Below, in pieces: positions 2,892-10,089 of a stretch of 39,670 nucleotides of DNA. The DNA is from a virus. Its lineage: Duplodnaviria > Heunggongvirae > Uroviricota > Caudoviricetes. Where the stretch lies: the IMG/VR virus record IMGVR_UViG_649989947_000012, positions 1 through 39,670 of that record, one strand, 5' to 3'. Positions within the stretch are counted from its first letter, which is position 1. Every line of letters begins with the position of its first letter. The notes below the pieces were generated by a model, which was not told where the DNA came from, ran no database searches, and saw nothing but the letters and a program-made list of their open reading frames with translations. Position numbers and translations under genes: made by a program.

Positions 2892-2930
2892 AGTTAACTT
2901 GTGAGTTATTTGTAAATAGTTCATACACAG

Positions 2931-2958
2931 GCCCCTGTTAATACAGGGGATTTTTATT
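2931..2958 (+). terminator. rho-independent terminator after ssb
   Basis: Hairpin CCCCTGT-taata-ACAGGGG followed by ATTTTTATTT. Confidence 0.55.
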
Positions 2959-3139
2959 TCTAGTAACTATAAGAGGTGTTAATTATTAATTGACAATCTT
3001 TAGTGTTTCGCGCACCTTGCAAGTATCCAATATTTACTGATTGTGGACGCATAAAGAAGATCCACAGCGTTACAAATTTGTATTTCTTTCTTCAGCAATT
3101 AAGCAGGCGACTTGCTCTATCCTGCCCAAAGGAACACGT

Positions 3140-4495
3140 ATGACACACTGCAAAGAAAATACTTGGTATGAGCGTCAAGGGTACAATACCACCCGCCCGA
3201 ATGAGATAAGGTCGGAGTATGAACGTGATCTTTCCCGGTTAATCCACTCTTCCGCTTTTAGGAGATTACAATCGAAGACGCAGGTGTTGGGATTGGGCGA
3301 AAGCGATTTCTACCGTACGCGGCTAACTCACTCTATGGAAGTAGCGCAAATTGGCGGCGGTATCTTGTCTCAGTTGTCTAAGCGCGATACAGATGAGGGG
3401 GGTAAATTCTTACCTGACCCAAGCCTGATGCAGGCTATCTGCCTTGCTCATGATATAGGACATCCCCCCTTCGGTCATGGTGGTGAGGTCGCACTAAACT
3501 ACTGCATGAGATCCTATGGCGGCTTTGAAGGTAACGGGCAGACACTGCGTATACTCTCCAAACTGGATAAGTACACCGAAACCAATGGGCTGGATCCCAC
3601 CCGTAGACTTATTTTAGGCGTACTGAAATATCCAGCAAGCTATTCAGAGGTCGTCAATGAGAGGGCTTACAGCCAGTTACAGCCAAGAAGCAATGAGTGG
3701 TTGTTTAAATCATCCGAATTTAAGCCCCCGAAATGTTACCTGGACTCTGAGGAGAACACTGTTAGATTCGCACTCCAACCTTTTGATAGTGATGATGTTA
3801 AGTTATTCAAAACGGTAAAAACTACCGCGTTGAATAAGCACAAGGAAACAATATATAAAGCACTGGATACAACGATTATGGACTTGGCTGATGAGATATC
3901 CTACTCACTCCATGATCTTGAAGACGCAATTTCTCTGAAGATGATCGACAAAAAAATGTGGGAGGAGCACTTCGAGGACAAATCCCATTTATTTGCAGCT
4001 TGCCAATGCGACTCGTTTAATCTAAAAGCCGATGATGTAGCTGAAAAACTGTTCGGCGAAAGTTATCTACGCAAGGAGTGCATAGGGACACTTGTTCATC
4101 TGATGATCACTAGCGTTAAGCTTGAAGTGCAGAACTCTGATTTCAAAAGTAAAATTTTACGCTATAAAGTAGCACTTCCTGCCGCGGTAGAAGAGTTACG
4201 TAAAGCCATTTTTGAGCTGGTTAGGAACAAAGTTATTCAGCACGAAAACGTCCAACTATTAGAGTTCAAAGGTCAGAAACTGATTGTGGAACTATTCAAT
4301 GTACTGGCAAATGACCCAATACGTTTTCTCCCGACAGAAACTCGAAAGAAATATAATCAAGAGGAAGCAAAAGGTGATGATAAAAAAATGCGCGTCATTT
4401 GCGACTATGTTTCAGGCATGACAGATGATTACGCTACTCGACTGTATGAGAAAATATTTGTACCGAGAAAAGGCTCTATTTTTGATAGACTCTGA
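3140..4495 (+). CDS. dGTPase-family HD-domain dNTP triphosphohydrolase, 451 aa
   Basis: Dgt-family motifs RTRLTHSMEVAQIG, LAHDIGHPPFGH, MDLADEISYSLHDLEDA and C-terminal DYVSGMTDDYATRLY; start at internal ATG 3140 with an AAGGA ribosome-binding site; AT-rich relative to flanking phage genes. Confidence 0.8.
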   Translation: MTHCKENTWYERQGYNTTRPNEIRSEYERDLSRLIHSSAFRRLQSKTQVLGLGESDFYRTRLTHSMEVAQIGGGILSQLSKRDTDEGGKFLPDPSLMQAICLAHDIGHPPFGHGGEVALNYCMRSYGGFEGNGQTLRILSKLDKYTETNGLDPTRRLILGVLKYPASYSEVVNERAYSQLQPRSNEWLFKSSEFKPPKCYLDSEENTVRFALQPFDSDDVKLFKTVKTTALNKHKETIYKALDTTIMDLADEISYSLHDLEDAISLKMIDKKMWEEHFEDKSHLFAACQCDSFNLKADDVAEKLFGESYLRKECIGTLVHLMITSVKLEVQNSDFKSKILRYKVALPAAVEELRKAIFELVRNKVIQHENVQLLEFKGQKLIVELFNVLANDPIRFLPTETRKKYNQEEAKGDDKKMRVICDYVSGMTDDYATRLYEKIFVPRKGSIFDRL

Positions 4496-4660
4496 TTTTT
4501 TTCTATTATATAGTACGTAGCCTGGTTCCAGAACCGCATAAAATTAGATCTGGATATAATTCATTTAATTATCTGTTATATGCCAAACATAACGATATAT
4601 AATAGTGGATTAGATGTTACAACTTGACGCAGAATAAATAGCTTTTATTGGCGCATGATG

Positions 4661-4688
4661 CAAACCCCGCAATGAAGCGGGGTTTTAA
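4661..4688. terminator. bidirectional hairpin terminator between convergent genes
   Basis: AACCCCGC-aatgaa-GCGGGGTT flanked by T-runs on both strands. Confidence 0.45.
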
Positions 4689-4702
4689 CTGTGGTAAATG
4701 AG

Positions 4703-4814
4703 TTATAATCTTTTAATCAGGCTCTCAATATTAGTTGGTTCAAAGTAATGCTTATTAACCTCTCCATTTATGAGAAAACCGTCTTTTAGTAGTCGGTCTA
4801 GCTCACGCTCTGCT
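4703..4814 (-). pseudogene. 3' part of a small membrane-protein gene split by the IS10-derived element
   Basis: Hand translation continues the 6332..6597 frame across the insertion (…KEAER|ELDRLLKDGFLINGEVNKHYFEPTNIESLIKRL) once the element and one duplication copy are removed. Confidence 0.45.
4806..4814. repeat. 9-bp target-site duplication CGCTCTGCT, left copy
   Basis: Identical 9-mer directly abuts both ends of the IS10-derived element (4806-4814 and 6332-6340). Confidence 0.8.
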
Positions 4815-6143
4815 CTGATGAATCCCCTAATGATTTTGGTAAAAATCATTAAGTTAAGGTGGATACACATCTTGTCATATGATCAAATGGTTTCGCGAAA
4901 AATCAATAATCAGACAACAAGATGTGCGAACTCGATATTTTACACGACTCTCTTTACCAATTCTGCCCCGAATTACACTTAAAACGACTCAACAGCTTAA
5001 CGTTGGCTTGCCACGCATTACTTGACTGTAAAACTCTCACTCTTACCGAACTTGGCCGTAACCTGCCAACCAAAGCGAGAACAAAACATAACATCAAACG
5101 AATCGACCGATTGTTAGGTAATCGTCACCTCCACAAAGAGCGACTCGCTGTATACCGTTGGCATGCTAGCTTTATCTGTTCGGGCAATACGATGCCCATT
5201 GTACTTGTTGACTGGTCTGATATCCGTGAGCAAAAACGGCTTATGGTATTGCGAGCTTCAGTCGCACTACACGGTCGTTCTGTTACTCTTTATGAGAAAG
5301 CGTTCCCGCTTTCAGAGCAATGTTCAAAGAAAGCTCATGACCAATTTCTAGCCGACCTTGCGAGCATTCTACCGAGTAACACCACACCGCTCATTGTCAG
5401 TGATGCTGGCTTTAAAGTGCCATGGTATAAATCCGTTGAGAAGCTGGGTTGGTACTGGTTAAGTCGAGTAAGAGGAAAAGTACAATATGCAGACCTAGGA
5501 GCGGAAAACTGGAAACCTATCAGCAACTTACATGATATGTCATCTAGTCACTCAAAGACTTTAGGCTATAAGAGGCTGACTAAAAGCAATCCAATCTCAT
5601 GCCAAATTCTATTGTATAAATCTCGCTCTAAAGGCCGAAAAAATCAGCGCTCGACACGGACTCATTGTCACCACCCGTCACCTAAAATCTACTCAGCGTC
5701 GGCAAAGGAGCCATGGGTTCTAGCAACTAACTTACCTGTTGAAATTCGAACACCCAAACAACTTGTTAATATCTATTCGAAGCGAATGCAGATTGAAGAA
5801 ACCTTCCGAGACTTGAAAAGTCCTGCCTACGGACTAGGCCTACGCCATAGCCGAACGAGCAGCTCAGAGCGTTTTGATATCATGCTGCTAATCGCCCTGA
5901 TGCTTCAACTAACATGTTGGCTTGCGGGCGTTCATGCTCAGAAACAAGGTTGGGACAAGCACTTCCAGGCTAACACAGTCAGAAATCGAAACGTACTCTC
6001 AACAGTTCGCTTAGGCATGGAAGTTTTGCGGCATTCTGGCTACACAATAACAAGGGAAGACTCACTCGTGGCTGCAACCCTGCTTACTCAAAATCTATTC
6101 ACACATGGTTACGTTTTGGGGAAATTATGAGGGGATCTCTCAG
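4815..6143 (+). mobile_element. IS10 (IS10-Right type), complete 1329 bp
   Basis: Outside end CTGATGAATCCCCTAATGATTTTGG at 4815 and inside end (complement of CTGAGAGATCCCCTCATAATTTCCCC) ending at 6143; encodes an intact 402-aa transposase. Confidence 0.9.
4922..6130 (+). CDS. tnp: IS10 transposase, 402 aa
   Basis: Full-length ORF beginning MCELDILHDSLYQFCPELHLKRLNSLTLACHALLDCK, recognised as the Tn10/IS10 transposase. Confidence 0.95.
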   Translation: MCELDILHDSLYQFCPELHLKRLNSLTLACHALLDCKTLTLTELGRNLPTKARTKHNIKRIDRLLGNRHLHKERLAVYRWHASFICSGNTMPIVLVDWSDIREQKRLMVLRASVALHGRSVTLYEKAFPLSEQCSKKAHDQFLADLASILPSNTTPLIVSDAGFKVPWYKSVEKLGWYWLSRVRGKVQYADLGAENWKPISNLHDMSSSHSKTLGYKRLTKSNPISCQILLYKSRSKGRKNQRSTRTHCHHPSPKIYSASAKEPWVLATNLPVEIRTPKQLVNIYSKRMQIEETFRDLKSPAYGLGLRHSRTSSSERFDIMLLIALMLQLTCWLAGVHAQKQGWDKHFQANTVRNRNVLSTVRLGMEVLRHSGYTITREDSLVAATLLTQNLFTHGYVLGKL

Positions 6144-6331
6144 CGTTAAGCTGTTGAGTCGTTTTAAGTGTAATTCGGGGCAGAATTGGTAAAGAGAGTC
6201 GTGTAAAATATCGAGTTCGCACATTTTGTTGTCTGATTATTGATTTTTGGCGAAACCATTTGATCATATGACAAGATGTGTATCTACCTTAACTTAATGA
6301 TTTTGATAAAAATCATTAGGGGATTCATCAG
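6144..6331 (-). mobile_element. inverted 188-bp fragment of an IS10 outside end
   Basis: Reverse complement of 4815-5002 with a few substitutions (for example TTTTTATCAAAATC versus TTTTGGTAAAAATC), abutting the inside end of the full copy. Confidence 0.85.
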
Positions 6332-6340
6332 CGCTCTGCT
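6332..6340. repeat. 9-bp target-site duplication CGCTCTGCT, right copy
   Basis: Matches 4806-4814 exactly. Confidence 0.8.
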
Positions 6341-6597
6341 TCTTTGTTGAACATACCTGGATATATTCTCTTGTACAACTGAAACGTACCATTCATATTC
6401 CTGTAAGCATTCTCAGCAATTTCAATGGAGATTTCATTTCCGGCGTTAAATACAGGAATGAATATCTCAAGAATATCATTCTTTAACTTCTGTTTAAGTT
6501 TCTTTTTTTCAACAATATTAGAATAAAAGATACCTAAAAAAAATGTGCAGATACCAGGAAGCCAATTATTAACGAAAACCTCAGACAAAGCGTCCAC
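6332..6597 (-). pseudogene. 5' part of the small membrane-protein gene split by the IS10-derived element
   Basis: ORF 6328..6597 begins MDALSEVFVNNWLPGICTFFLGIFYSNIV (hydrophobic N-terminus) and runs into the IS end, where it meets a stop inside IS10 sequence. Confidence 0.45.
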
Positions 6598-6803
6598 TAT
6601 CTTACTCCAGAGTTAAGATTGATTCTCATAACGCACAAACTCCGTTCAAGGCGATTTTTATATTACAAACTATACATAAACGCTGATCAATATCTCCAGA
6701 TTTTGTGTGCCTGTGCATGAATATGCACTAATCATAATCGACCAGAACTTCCGTTAATCGCTAAACTCGAACGATTCTAGCCACATAGACGATCTGTTAG
6801 TAT

Positions 6804-7112
6804 CTAATATACAAACTGATCCACATGATCACCCAAATCATCGTCGTCGTCCTCATCGCCACCATCTACTGCTGGCCAATCAACAAACCAGCCAGCGTAA
6901 AGATGCAGCGTTCGGAGAACATCACTTGCGGGAGCATCAAGGGTGTTAACGAATCCCATATAGCTATTGGGATTTGCTCCAGCTATGGCTTCAGCGATCA
7001 TGTCCTCGGTAATGTCACCGGAGATAATGCTTAAACGCCCGGAAACTTCTTCATTATCATCAAATTCGATAATGGCATCTCCACCTAATGGCGCTGCGAT
7101 TTTAATCTGCAT
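6804..7112 (-). CDS. small highly acidic protein (102 aa) coupled to the ddrB-like gene
   Basis: Start overlaps the stop of the upstream 995-aa gene by 11 nt; very acidic C-terminal half (DGGDEDDDDDLGDHVDQ). Confidence 0.5.
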   Translation of the reverse strand: MQIKIAAPLGGDAIIEFDDNEEVSGRLSIISGDITEDMIAEAIAGANPNSYMGFVNTLDAPASDVLRTLHLYAGWFVDWPAVDGGDEDDDDDLGDHVDQFVY

Positions 7113-10089
7113 TATTTAGCTCCTTTGCCACACCTAATAACAGTTCCAGCAATCCGTCACCATTCATCAGTGATGCGGCAGCGGCCTCTTTGTCATGATA
7201 CAACTGAAGAGCCATAGAGAATACTTCCGTTGCTGACGTTTTGGAAATAGTCGGTGATTTCTGCCGAATTTTCCCGGTGTTACTTACTGAGGCTGGCGGG
7301 TATACCTTCGCCATATAAATATTACTCAATCGAGATCTGAAGCACCATTCAGGCTTGCCACGCCCACCGATATTGACGAAAGATGGCTTATCCCCTTCAA
7401 CATTGGCCTTCAGGAATGACCGGGCTTTCTCTAACAAACCAGGGTTACTGTACTCAAGATGATGACCCAGCTCGTGCCACAGTGCACTTGCATTTTCATC
7501 GTTCAAATTGACAGCAACAACACCATTTAGATTTGCATATGCCCTTCCCTGGTGGTGAACTACCTTTGATAAGGTCGATATTTTCCCGCCGGTCAGGCGA
7601 TAAATATCAGCAAGTTCCTTGCGCAGGTCTATCCCACCATTCTGTCCAGCGCGGGCTTCTTCCACTTCTTCTGTGATAAAAGAGTCGGCCCACTCAAGAG
7701 CTTTTTCTTCAGATACGGATGAGTTTGCGATCGCACTGTTCATGGCAGATAACACTTTCTCGTGGACCGAACCCATACTTCGCTGATTCATTTGCCAGCG
7801 TGTCTGCGGGTTATATGAGAATCGCTTAAGTAGTTGGTCAAGCTGCTCAAGTTCTTCTTCACTGACATACTTTTTAGCCTCACCAATAATGCCAGGGAGA
7901 ATATTGCCGTTAGGATTAAACGCTCGCGAAAGGAAGAGTTTCAGCGCCCCCATGCCCTCCGATGCTTCAATATCACCAATAACCCGGTTAACAATGGCCG
8001 CACTCTTCGGATTAGCATCCGCCAACGCTCTGGCTACAATTTGCAGGGACGATACGACCTCACGCTGCATATCCGTCCTGATCTCATCAATAAACTCTGG
8101 CGTTATGCCGTGCTCTTTAAGGATATCCCTGCCTTCCGCCGTTACCCCATCGATATCTCCGACATGTTTATTAACCCGACTTTGCAATGCCTTAAATGCC
8201 TTCAGAATTCCACGGGAATCATCCGCTTTACTAACGGCCTTCCTGAATGCTGGCAAGAAGTCTGAGTTAACCTCATTTTGTTGATCGGCCCACTGAATGG
8301 AGGCTTCTTTCATCTCGTCCAGAGTCAGATCACCCAACGCGGTATGGTCTGTGAATATGAGCGACAACCTCTGAACCATTTCTGCCAATGGTGATGCCGA
8401 ATGCGCCGCGCTAAGGAATGCTTTCACCCTGGTTGGGCGAATGGAAAACCAGTCAATAGCTGGTGGCATATCTCCGTTTTGTATCGCCTGCGCTATCTCA
8501 TCAAAGCCGTCGCGCCCAAGGGAGGATGCGTGATTTAACAATCCGCGAAGTAACGAATTGCTGATACCGAATAATCGGCACCATTTATTCACGTCGGCAA
8601 CAGGCATTCGAACAAAATGCGCAAGCACTTGTACAAGCTGTTCATCCTGGGGATCTGTGCGGGAAAGCAGCCTGATCAGATGAATAATGTCTTTGATGCC
8701 GGATGCCCGATGTAATAGCAAACTGGTATATGGAGCAACACCGTTGTAACTACCGCCGGAAACGGACTCGAAAAGACCGCCGGATATCCCTTGCATGCCT
8801 TCGTTTTCCAGTTCCTGAGACACCTGGCGAAGGATATCCTGTAACGACACATCACCACCGCCAAACATATCCCCCAGCGCCTGGCCCTGGTGCTGTAACT
8901 CATCATTGATACGTTGAGCCATCAATTTAAAGGCGGTGGCCATACGCTTCGCGCTACGGTTATTCGCGACGATGAACAACGCGAGAGCTTTCACTTCCGG
9001 GGCTGTTTCGCTGAACATATCCCCCTGAGCAATAACATCGGTAATATGTTGGCCTGACTCCTTCGATTGCCTTACCAGGTCTACCGCATCTTTCAATGCC
9101 GCCAGCGCCTTTTTATCGAGGCTATCCGCTGTTTCAATGCCATCAACGATGGTTGTCACAGCCTGCTTGTGCGCTTCTCCTGATAAAGCCTGCATCTGGA
9201 CAAAATCATTGGCTGCCGCATTAAGCGCCGTCAGAACATTACGCATATCCGGATCAGGTTCTTCTGCAACCATCCTTACCAGGCGCGCATCCTTATATGC
9301 CTTGGCAAAGATCGCGTTTTGTATACGGTCTACAAGTTGCCGTGTTGGTCGCCCATCTTCAGTTACAAGGCCAGCCGCCTGTGTGGCACCAACTTGCGTC
9401 ATAAATCCGCGAATAAACGCGTCATTACTGCGGCTAAGCAGATCTCCACTTTCTGACGGGTTAAACAACGCCATCATCGCCGGTGTTATGCTGTCGGCAT
9501 CAACAAAAGCCTTTTCACTGGCTGCCATTTCCTGGAGATCAGAAATATTTGAGTCCTTGGCAAACTGAACACGGTCAACCTTCGTTAACCGGCGGCGCAC
9601 CAGTACCGGAGCCGTCATTGATTCAACCTTTTCAGGCCGTATGCCGAATTCGGTCGCATGTTCAATCAGGTACTCCCGATACCGATCCGCATTACCGTCC
9701 TGATAGGCTTTAATGATCCCCATGGTCCGCCCATTACCTGACTCAACGGCATTGTCCTCACCAATTATTGGCGCACCATGGCTGGATAAACCGGAATCAG
9801 TAAGCTGAGCTGGCCGCAAATCTTTGGATATCTGGTTAACCTGAAGAAGGCTGGATGCGCGGGTCCGGTCGCGCGGCTGAAGTTCCTGGGGATAGTCAGG
9901 ATTAATTTTCCCATCCAGAGTATTGGATACCAAAAGAGCTGAGGCATCGACGATATCAAACGCTGTTTTTACCTCGTCTCCCTTCGCTGTCACCACATAC
10001 GAAACCCGCCCATAATCGGGCAGGTTCTTTAGCAGCTCGATCAGCGTTTCTATGCTGGTGGCCATTACCACCTGATCGCTTAAGCTCAT
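7102..10089 (-). CDS. ddrB: large Dar-operon protein, DdrB-like (995 aa)
   Basis: Size and position after DarA-like and DdrA-like genes fit the P1 darA operon (from memory); carries an HExxH motif (ALWHELGHHLEY) near the C-terminus. Confidence 0.5.
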   Translation of the reverse strand: MSLSDQVVMATSIETLIELLKNLPDYGRVSYVVTAKGDEVKTAFDIVDASALLVSNTLDGKINPDYPQELQPRDRTRASSLLQVNQISKDLRPAQLTDSGLSSHGAPIIGEDNAVESGNGRTMGIIKAYQDGNADRYREYLIEHATEFGIRPEKVESMTAPVLVRRRLTKVDRVQFAKDSNISDLQEMAASEKAFVDADSITPAMMALFNPSESGDLLSRSNDAFIRGFMTQVGATQAAGLVTEDGRPTRQLVDRIQNAIFAKAYKDARLVRMVAEEPDPDMRNVLTALNAAANDFVQMQALSGEAHKQAVTTIVDGIETADSLDKKALAALKDAVDLVRQSKESGQHITDVIAQGDMFSETAPEVKALALFIVANNRSAKRMATAFKLMAQRINDELQHQGQALGDMFGGGDVSLQDILRQVSQELENEGMQGISGGLFESVSGGSYNGVAPYTSLLLHRASGIKDIIHLIRLLSRTDPQDEQLVQVLAHFVRMPVADVNKWCRLFGISNSLLRGLLNHASSLGRDGFDEIAQAIQNGDMPPAIDWFSIRPTRVKAFLSAAHSASPLAEMVQRLSLIFTDHTALGDLTLDEMKEASIQWADQQNEVNSDFLPAFRKAVSKADDSRGILKAFKALQSRVNKHVGDIDGVTAEGRDILKEHGITPEFIDEIRTDMQREVVSSLQIVARALADANPKSAAIVNRVIGDIEASEGMGALKLFLSRAFNPNGNILPGIIGEAKKYVSEEELEQLDQLLKRFSYNPQTRWQMNQRSMGSVHEKVLSAMNSAIANSSVSEEKALEWADSFITEEVEEARAGQNGGIDLRKELADIYRLTGGKISTLSKVVHHQGRAYANLNGVVAVNLNDENASALWHELGHHLEYSNPGLLEKARSFLKANVEGDKPSFVNIGGRGKPEWCFRSRLSNIYMAKVYPPASVSNTGKIRQKSPTISKTSATEVFSMALQLYHDKEAAAASLMNGDGLLELLLGVAKELNNAD

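Follow-up and report, generated by a model that had tools for sequence, protein, structure and literature searches.

An IS10-derived element splits a small conserved accessory gene beside the anti-phage dGTPase gene of a P1-like phage-plasmid

Lactococcal Sie2009, HK97 gp15 and T4 Imm are small, membrane-anchored superinfection-exclusion proteins encoded by prophages. In the work of Tal et al. on anti-phage dGTPases, the dGTPase gene alone reportedly sufficed for defence. One study reports that P1-like elements of E. coli carry dGTPase systems (10.1101/2025.09.12.675607), and another describes the interval between ssb and hxr as variable, under the name “variable region 2” of P1-like phage-plasmids (PMC9603915). 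The matching passages of these two sources make no mention of the small gene considered here or of its insertion.

The window, by which is meant the whole 39,670-nucleotide stretch analyzed (IMG/VR record IMGVR_UViG_649989947_000012), is a P1-like phage-plasmid. Homology to P1 ends exactly at the stop codons of ssb and hxr, and in the slot between them the isaA-IS1-isaB segment of phage P1 has been replaced by other cargo (Table 1). Two independent accessory units occupy the slot. One is a single-gene anti-phage dGTPase; the other, a compact unit of approximately 0.55 kb, consists of a 122-codon small gene with its own ribosome-binding site and a probable terminator hairpin. The two genes are convergent, as the sequence-only reading had recognized, and are separated by 207 bp. 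The stable, GC-rich hairpin in this interval is conserved downstream of homologues and, in other genomes, accompanies the small gene; it is probably the terminator of the small gene.

Table 1. Coordinates of the features in and around the ssb-hxr slot of the window (strand “.”, none assigned)
Feature	Coordinates	Strand	Details
Cargo slot ssb-hxr	2892..6803	.	Flanks: ssb 2403-2891, hxr 6804-7112
Anti-phage dGTPase gene, intact, 451 aa	3140..4495	+	PADLOC dGTPase 495 bits; NF041026 571 bits (cut-off 400 bits); longest ORF begins at 3041, ATG at 3140
GC-rich hairpin between the convergent genes	4662..4685	.	-15.9 and -17.0 kcal/mol; z -3.0 and -4.5
Small gene, 3′ part	4703..4814	-	Codons ~87-122, including the left duplication copy; stop 4705-4703
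Hybrid 55-codon ORF	4703..4870	-	Start ATG within the IS10 outside end; continues in frame through the small gene's last 36 codons
Target-site duplication, left copy, 9 bp	4806..4814	.	Direct repeat, CGCTCTGCT
Complete IS10, 1329 bp	4815..6143	+	99.3-99.5% identity to both R27 Tn10 IS10 copies; outside end at 4815 (IS10-Right type), inside end at 6143
Inverted IS10 outside-end fragment (IS10-Left type), 188 bp	6144..6331	-	Directly abuts the IS10 inside end
Target-site duplication, right copy, 9 bp	6332..6340	.	Direct repeat, CGCTCTGCT
Small gene, 5′ part	6332..6597	-	Codons 1-89; GTG start 6597-6595

The small gene lies on the minus strand and is interrupted at codon 87-89 by a 1517-bp element (4815-6331), which is bordered by a 9-bp target duplication. 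Excision of the element and one duplicate restores, on the minus strand, an open frame of 369 nt (122 codons) with a GGAG located 7 nt upstream of its GTG start. This frame, which had been estimated at about 120 amino acid residues, contains no internal stop and its translation is the same as the string given in the sequence-only reading; the limits of the element, the duplication and the restored ORF agree with the proposal that an IS10-derived element had split the gene. Intact homologues were found as well, a protein identical to the reconstructed one (P0059) being present on at least 1000 public contigs. Uninterrupted DNA occurs in phage vB_EcoM-673R5 (annotation: hypothetical protein, 122 aa), in 41 of the 53 matching PLSDB plasmids and in 53 of the 64 matching E. 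coli complete genomes, and empty insertion sites are seen in phage ON470615.2 and dozens of plasmids. A promoter scan upstream of the small gene returned one weak sigma-70-like site only (6698-6669; 9/12 matches), and because the region as a whole has fewer sites than its shuffled controls no promoter is claimed.

The element is related to IS10 and Tn10 (IS4 family), which are annotated in RefSeq under the name ISVsa5. Its larger part is identified as IS10 by its length of 1329 bp, its outside and inside terminal sequences (CTGATGAATCCCC... and ...GGGGATCTCTCAG), a single DDE transposase and the 9-bp duplication; the transposase ORF (4922-6130, 402 aa) is intact. The 188-bp end shows six mismatches to the left IS10 copy of the element, 100% identity to the gltS-side (IS10-Left) Tn10 end in plasmid R27 and 96.8% identity to the tet-side end. 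Together the two pieces make up the 1517-bp unit with outside ends at both limits, and the inverted IS10-Left and IS10-Right type ends, with the outside ends outermost, correspond to the arrangement in Tn10. None of the central Tn10 genes (tetR/tetA(B)/tetC/tetD and jem) is found in the element, which differs from Tn10 in the absence of the tet and jem genes and of all of IS10-Left except 188 bp. Since the inside end of the complete IS10 directly abuts nucleotide 188 of the other copy, the element is a deletion remnant and not a Tn10; it is best read as a collapsed Tn10. The collapse would have arisen when the IS10 inside end attacked, intramolecularly, the near-consensus target CGTTAAGCT in the other IS10 and so removed the tet region and most of IS10-Left, and it could have taken place either at this site or before the 1517-bp unit transposed here. 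Neither the junction of the inside end with nucleotide 188 nor the same insertion allele was matched in PLSDB or in the E. coli complete genomes. As its transposase gene is intact and both outside ends have been kept, the unit may still move.

The target consensus of IS10 is NGCTNAGCN. The duplicated CGCTCTGCT matches its GCT half-site, and the other half-site only in part. The same 9 bp, in a stretch of 17 identical bases, were used by an independent IS10 in IncX3 plasmid NZ_CP060931.1. The structural account, according to which a Tn10 remnant splits the small gene, leaves residues 1-89 and does not touch the dGTPase gene, is very probably correct to judge from the DNA.

The frame of the small gene runs into the element, where a TGA from the IS10 end closes it, giving an 89-aa ORF at 6328-6597. 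The truncated product comprises native residues 1-89. Of the 33 C-terminal residues which are lost, 11 are invariant or nearly so in the family (L91, L94, L95, G98, F99, N106, P112, I115, L118, I119 and L122), and two helices predicted by the structural model go with them. This copy had been called inactivated, and the loss of 33 residues points in that direction, but the 89-residue product retains the hydrophobic helix and the invariant motif of the family, so that the loss of function may be incomplete. The outside ends of IS10 carry an outward promoter, pOUT, which could drive the in-frame hybrid ORF on the other side of the element. Either this hybrid or the fully native 89-residue fragment could in principle keep or alter the activity, in which case the insertion would not be inactivating; with 11 conserved positions and two predicted helices gone, we regard this as unlikely.

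The small gene is, judging by its substitution pattern, a real gene under strong purifying selection, with dN/dS values of 0.07-0.17 (in pairs with synonymous sites near saturation) and 43 columns invariant in 17 homologues at an overall identity of only 55-60%. Diverged homologues are present in Salmonella, Yersinia, Vibrio, Marinomonas, a P2-like prophage and probably a spirochaete, and the invariant motif is kept across Enterobacterales, Vibrio, Marinomonas, Halomonas and probably the spirochaete. The protein matches PHROG 26730 over its full length (residues 2-122 against the 122-position profile; E = 2.3e-77, 258 bits), a family without an assigned function, so that membership carries no mechanistic information. 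It is otherwise an orphan family, a profile search of 1.84 billion representative proteins recovering 13 family members only. No match was obtained in Pfam or NCBIfam, no defence family of PADLOC-DB v2.0.0 matched at E up to 1, and the profile search of the PDB gave no hit with E below 0.6. Comparison with IsaB of P1 using hhalign gave a probability of 0.3%, indicating that the two proteins are unrelated. The AlphaFold2 model (pLDDT 71) resembles generic four-helix bundles only, and a BFVD structure search with this model produced no match at E <= 0.001. A literature search by RefSeq accession WP_000339558 gave no match. ORFs of 111 aa and 71 aa overlap the start of the small gene at three loci (L014, L027 and L030), the 71-aa ORF resembling, to the eye, an N-terminal integrase fragment; both are missing at other loci, and no conserved partner gene was found.

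It had been suggested that the small gene and the dGTPase gene are similarly AT-rich and may belong to the same cargo module. Both do lie below the GC content of the window (47.8%), but at 33% and 43%, respectively, they differ from one another. Likewise, the two are co-inherited as a single insert in the ssb-hxr slot in one lineage of P1-like plasmids, but the unit shared with other elements excludes the dGTPase gene, and diverged homologues occur without it. A functional pairing, in which the small protein would serve the dGTPase as accessory subunit, regulator or immunity factor and the module would be crippled here, agrees with the adjacency of the genes, with their co-inheritance in every P1-like plasmid that has the small gene and with a GC content below that of the backbone in both. 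However, this association is confined to the one lineage, a dGTPase adjoining the small gene only in P1-like copies at least 97% identical (tblastn, all loci fetched). At 52-84% identity (at least 20 loci; tblastn) no dGTPase gene is present in the 6-8 kb flank on either side of the homologues, and the expected co-occurrence with dGTPase-family genes fails for homologues at or below 84% identity. The DNA common to other elements comprises the small gene and hairpin only (approximately 6653-4600 in the window), ending about 100 bp past the stop codon of the small gene, with the dGTPase gene outside. Conversely, in the P1-like plasmid NZ_OQ534122.1 an IS1 deletion has removed the small gene and the dGTPase gene is retained. 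The genes are also convergent and not co-transcribed, and Tal et al. describe dGTPase genes cloned on their own in an expression plasmid (10.1101/2021.04.26.441389). We consequently rejected the pairing, which we consider highly improbable; in all likelihood the small gene is independent of the dGTPase. As the gene is not a dGTPase partner, the insertion is an ordinary event. Loss of dispensable cargo to an IS is routine in a variable region that is already known, and catalogues list the gene as hypothetical.

The product had also been described as a membrane protein with a hydrophobic N-terminus. Such a stretch is present but is moderate, its best Kyte-Doolittle 19-residue window being 1.39 (1.29-1.73 across 13 homologues), below or near the usual threshold of approximately 1.6 for a membrane segment; the crude Hessa sum is positive (+2.8 to +6.3 kcal/mol), and support for a membrane protein is marginal. 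The segment includes conserved N, P, G and T residues and is of marginal hydrophobicity, so that a soluble protein is possible. The segment is followed by a strong lysine cluster. On these features we think membrane anchoring of the small protein somewhat likely. In the proposed layout KKKLKQKLK and the invariant motif DILEIFIPVFN come after a hydrophobic helix at the N-terminus, and this helix would tether a helical domain of approximately 90 residues at the cytoplasmic face of the inner membrane. Such a protein would resemble Sie2009, HK97 gp15 and T4 Imm in its small size and its moron position in temperate phages and plasmids, in placing a small domain after a hydrophobic N-terminal helix, and in being encoded by a dispensable, variably present gene. 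It differs from them in that no sequence or fold similarity is detected and in that its domain is predicted to be cytoplasmic by the positive-inside rule, not outside. A holin or lysis role was rejected on context: an endolysin is never found beside the homologue in other genomes, and the lydD and lyz genes of P1, retained here at 1429-2233, stand apart, with ssb and the dGTPase gene between them and the small gene.

Homologues usually adjoin defence genes, which are different each time. These neighbours include bSEFIR and AbiV (L033), PDC-S08 (L038), PDC-S25/SIR2 (L015), PD-T4-7 (L027), a GmrSD_N/NsnA-like gene in a P2-like prophage (L030), Mrr_cat and HNH (L039), DUF4365-TPR (L014), an OLD-like TOPRIM ATPase (L050), YaaC and putAbiC (L047), and ArdA, a methyltransferase and an Eco57I-type gene (L003-L006); no defence gene was found near the homologue at L013 or in an Enterobacter plasmid (L035). 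A recognized defence or restriction-type gene lies within about three genes in at least 11 of approximately 17 settings, a raw count, and the adjacency could simply reflect general cargo hot spots. It is tentatively suggested from these neighbourhoods that the small gene is a stand-alone exclusion or defence gene. It would be a stand-alone accessory gene carried by phages, plasmids and genomic islands at their hot spots for defence and cargo genes. Most likely it would exclude phages or other mobile elements that enter the cell, or counter them by abortive defence.

The small gene may also be thought of as a passenger or backbone-flanking gene. Its role would then lie outside defence (for example in lysogen physiology, element maintenance or a membrane stress response), or in P1-like plasmids it would have none that is selectable, and the defence neighbours would be a hot-spot effect. 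In Yersinia-type elements the homologue, together with a 70-aa gene downstream of it, borders a variable cargo segment, adjoining a polyvalent LPD/MuF_C protein, and there the pair look like backbone and not like cargo. In P1-like plasmids the small gene is repeatedly lost or struck by an IS, without visible consequence; frameshifted variants exist, and no defence family was matched. By contrast, strong purifying selection together with the invariant motif from Enterobacterales to, probably, a spirochaete argues for a selectable function in many hosts, and the movement of the compact unit between unrelated elements is moron-like behaviour. We judge a passenger role to be a substantial possibility that nevertheless falls short of probable.

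The overall explanation, a collapsed Tn10 within an independent accessory gene, is probably right. The 1517-bp unit provides a clean natural case of Tn10 stripped of its resistance genes. The dGTPase cargo of P1-like plasmids may be treated as a one-gene system, and the adjacent ORF should not be annotated within it. The small gene family is of mild interest in that it recurs in defence-gene hot spots. It is possible, and we put this forward with reserve, that the 122-aa protein founds an unrecognized single-gene anti-phage or anti-plasmid exclusion family, carried as a cassette of gene plus terminator and acting at the cytoplasmic side of the membrane through the helix containing DILEIFIPVFN. 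If so, this exclusion cassette would hop from one defence hot spot to another, in P1-like and P2-like phages as well as in conjugative elements, plasmids and chromosomal islands, and would span several gammaproteobacterial orders and probably a spirochaete. The family is in any event a reasonable and cheap candidate for a defence screen, being tiny, conserved, mobile as a unit and situated beside many different defence genes.

The sequence-only reading held that a small membrane-protein gene, convergent with the dGTPase gene, is split by an IS10-derived element, and this observation is confirmed. Deleting the element together with one copy of its 9-bp target duplication (see table) restores 122 codons in a single frame, with a GTG start, a TAA stop, and GGAG 7 nt upstream of the start. 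This is the continuous minus-strand ORF of about 120 aa that had been proposed, and its translation is the string given there. Uninterrupted homologues, which that reading had suggested seeking, were found in ON470615.2, PLSDB plasmids, and E. coli complete genomes. The site is empty in vB_EcoM-673R5 (ON470615.2), where a 122-aa CDS is annotated, and uninterrupted DNA of at least 99% identity is present in 41 of the 53 matching PLSDB plasmids and 53 of the 64 matching E. coli genomes; the 1517-bp insertion is absent from all of these 53 and 64 matches. The exact reconstructed protein (public entry P0059) occurs on at least 1000 contigs of the public collection, named hypothetical in every case. 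As judged from sequence comparison, the reconstructed gene is no chance ORF. The coding strand contains a T8 homopolymer at codons 18–21 (window 6536–6543), near which public frameshifted variants are found (protein entries P0009 and P0024; loci L025 and L026); these may be sequencing errors or genuine slippage mutants.

Coordinates of the split gene, the inserted element, and adjoining features in the window
Feature	Position	Strand	Remarks
Anti-phage dGTPase gene	3140 (ATG)–4495	+	NF041026, 571 bits (cut-off 400); PADLOC dGTPase model, 495 bits
Conserved hairpin	4662–4685		−15.9 and −17.0 kcal/mol
Small-gene fragments	6597–6332 and 4814–4703	−	
Hybrid ORF	4703–4870		55 codons; begins within the IS10 end, in frame with the last 36 small-gene codons
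Target duplication CGCTCTGCT	4806–4814 and 6332–6340		direct copies
Inserted element	4815–6331		1517 bp
Complete IS10	4815–6143		1329 bp; transposase ORF intact, 402 aa
Inverted copy of first 188 bp of IS10 outside end	6144–6331		fused directly to the IS10 inside end

The window is P1-like phage-plasmid DNA: identity to P1 is 96–99% across ssb, hxr, ddrB, ddrA, darA, and the morphogenesis genes that lie downstream, and P1 homology ends precisely at the stop codons of ssb (2891) and hxr (6804). Between these genes P1 carries isaA-IS1-isaB, whereas the window carries the dGTPase gene (plus strand) and the small gene (minus strand). The slot is termed “variable region 2” of P1-like phage-plasmids in PMC9603915, and dGTPase systems are described as common cargo of P1-like elements of E. 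coli in 10.1101/2025.09.12.675607. In a different P1-like plasmid (NZ_CP080059.1; locus L041, 3194–6400) the slot holds DUF2829, a hypothetical gene, and IS10, and IS10 has therefore entered it more than once. In P1-like NZ_CP032890.1, IS1 abuts the start codon of the small gene; about 11 P1-like plasmids have IS1 a few bases from this codon and lack hxr, ddrB, and ddrA. At the left edge of the window an IS4 copy (1–1400) runs past the boundary, its transposase frame broken into ORFs of 350 aa (58–1110) and 105 aa (1070–1387); P1 homology restarts at 1401, equivalent to P1 position ~20050, just beyond the end of pro and within the 3′-end of lydE (antiholin).

The 188-bp end differs from the left copy at six positions. 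In a comparison with Tn10 of plasmid R27, it matches the gltS-side (IS10-Left) outside end at 100% identity and the tet-side end at 96.8%, while the complete IS10 is of the opposite end type; the two termini of the element are therefore those of Tn10. Everything from the IS10-Right inside end to nucleotide 188 of IS10-Left is deleted relative to Tn10. The target preference of IS10 is NGCTNAGCN, which the 9 bp beside the inside end, CGTTAAGCT, fit at five of the six specified positions. An intramolecular transposition by the inside end would have deleted the tet region, either in place or prior to transposition of the element. The junction of inside end and nucleotide 188 was not found in PLSDB or the E. 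coli complete genomes. An independent IS10 lies in an unrelated gene of the IncX3 plasmid pEC13-NDM-5 (NZ_CP060931.1; locus L043, 4860–6200), likewise with an IS10-Left-type outside end, and is flanked by the identical 9-bp duplication inside 17 identical target bases (CTCACGCTCTGCTTCTT); given the shared duplication, IS10 seems to target this sequence repeatedly.

Read from its start, the small gene continues through the right-hand duplicate until a TGA from the IS10 end, so that the product consists of native residues 1–89. Of the 33 C-terminal residues that are missing, 11 occupy positions at which the family shows no or almost no variation. The duplication and the restored ORF bear out the split, and the inactivation proposed for this copy is held to be likely. 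IS10 outside ends carry the outward promoter pOUT, and since both ends of the unit are outside ends (6144–6331; 4815–4930), outward transcription is possible both ways: predicted leftward transcripts could enter the 3′ fragment, and rightward ones could be antisense to both the 5′ fragment and hxr.

The suggestion that the small gene and the dGTPase gene belong to one cargo module holds for physical co-inheritance in one lineage, but not for a functional module. When co-occurrence was checked, the dGTPase gene adjoined only small-gene copies at least 97% identical to that of the window, all of them P1-like, and was absent from the 6–8 kb that flank each more diverged homologue on either side. 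The DNA that the P1-like copy has in common with its nearest counterparts elsewhere begins ~56 bp before the start codon and ends ~100 bp past the stop, taking in the hairpin and leaving out the dGTPase gene. The GC content is 33% for the small gene versus 43% for the dGTPase gene; an IS1-associated deletion in NZ_OQ534122.1 took the former and left the latter; and Tal et al. (10.1101/2021.04.26.441389) describe dGTPase genes cloned alone into an expression plasmid. On these observations, the two genes are co-inherited physically in one lineage but have separate origins, and no functional tie is detectable in the adjacency, shared-DNA, GC, and IS1-deletion comparisons. The dGTPase gene, intact in the window, is annotated as two CDS in ON470615.2 (locus L001, 4269–5622), which is a frameshift or sequencing error. 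In a Salmonella island (L003, ~6400–7550) an IS4-family end (CTGAGGAATCCCC...) apparently interrupts the hairpin just 3′ of the homologue, followed by an ORF with a DDE_Tnp_1 match.

Homologues of 52–99% identity occur in E. coli, Salmonella, Enterobacter, Kosakonia, Lonsdalea, Dryocola, Yersinia, Vibrio, Marinomonas, Rheinheimera, Halomonas, metagenome bins, and CP002116.1, presumably Spirochaeta smaragdinae. Pairwise dN/dS is 0.07–0.17, and a mid-protein KLRQKLKNDILEIFIPVFN(S/A)GE is nearly invariant. The family is narrow (a search of 1.84 billion proteins gave 13 representatives at 50% identity), and its sole library match is PHROG 26730, of unknown function. AlphaFold2 predicts an all-helical fold (pLDDT 71), for which generic helical bundles were the only matches; no PDB relative was found. 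A lysine cluster comes after the N-terminal hydrophobic segment (VFVNNWLPGICTFFLGIFY in the window copy), an order that fits an N-out/C-in anchor. Across 13 homologues the Kyte-Doolittle 19-residue maxima of the segment are marginal (1.29–1.73), a crude Hessa calculation sums to +2.8 to +6.3 kcal/mol, and N, W, P, G, and T are invariant within the segment, all of which counts against anchoring. On balance, membrane anchoring is somewhat favored.

The immediate neighbors of the homologues differ in almost every setting and are often defense genes: AbiV and bSEFIR (417 bits), which follow a polyvalent LPD5/LPD1/MuF_C/LPD38 protein (loci L033/L034), PDC-S08 (L038), PDC-S25 (SIR2; L015), PD-T4-7 (L027), a GmrSD_N/NsnA-like gene of a P2-like prophage, with a Dam methylase and the P2 replication gene A alongside (L030), Mrr_cat, T5orf172, and HNH (L039), DUF4365-TPR (L014), an OLD-like TOPRIM ATPase (L050), YaaC, putAbiC, and PIN (L047), ArdA, a methyltransferase, and an Eco57I-type gene (L003–L006), and a plasmid fertility-inhibition factor (L018). 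Such a pattern reads as the signature of a defense/cargo hot-spot gene, the enrichment in defense genes being suggestive only. In L014 (7464–8001), L027 (1–538), and L030 (7449–7986) the start of the homologue is overlapped by two short ORFs, which also overlap one another; the first product is an acidic protein of 111 aa and the second a 71-aa protein resembling an integrase N-terminal fragment. Of the latter ORF, the last ~18 codons alone remain in the window (6598–6653). In the Yersinia-type loci L009, L033, and L034, the homologue and an opposite-strand gene for a 70-aa two-helix protein bracket a variable segment, which contains AbiV and bSEFIR or else a pair of ORFs (277 and 256 aa), downstream of the giant polyvalent protein; this arrangement resembles a defined hot spot for cargo.

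Overall, the interpretation offered by the sequence-only reading finds partial support. The best-supported interpretation is an ordinary insertion of a transposon remnant into an independent, dispensable, uncharacterized accessory gene of a known cargo slot. That the small gene represents a new one-gene exclusion or defense family is rather unlikely; if true, it would be of moderate interest.
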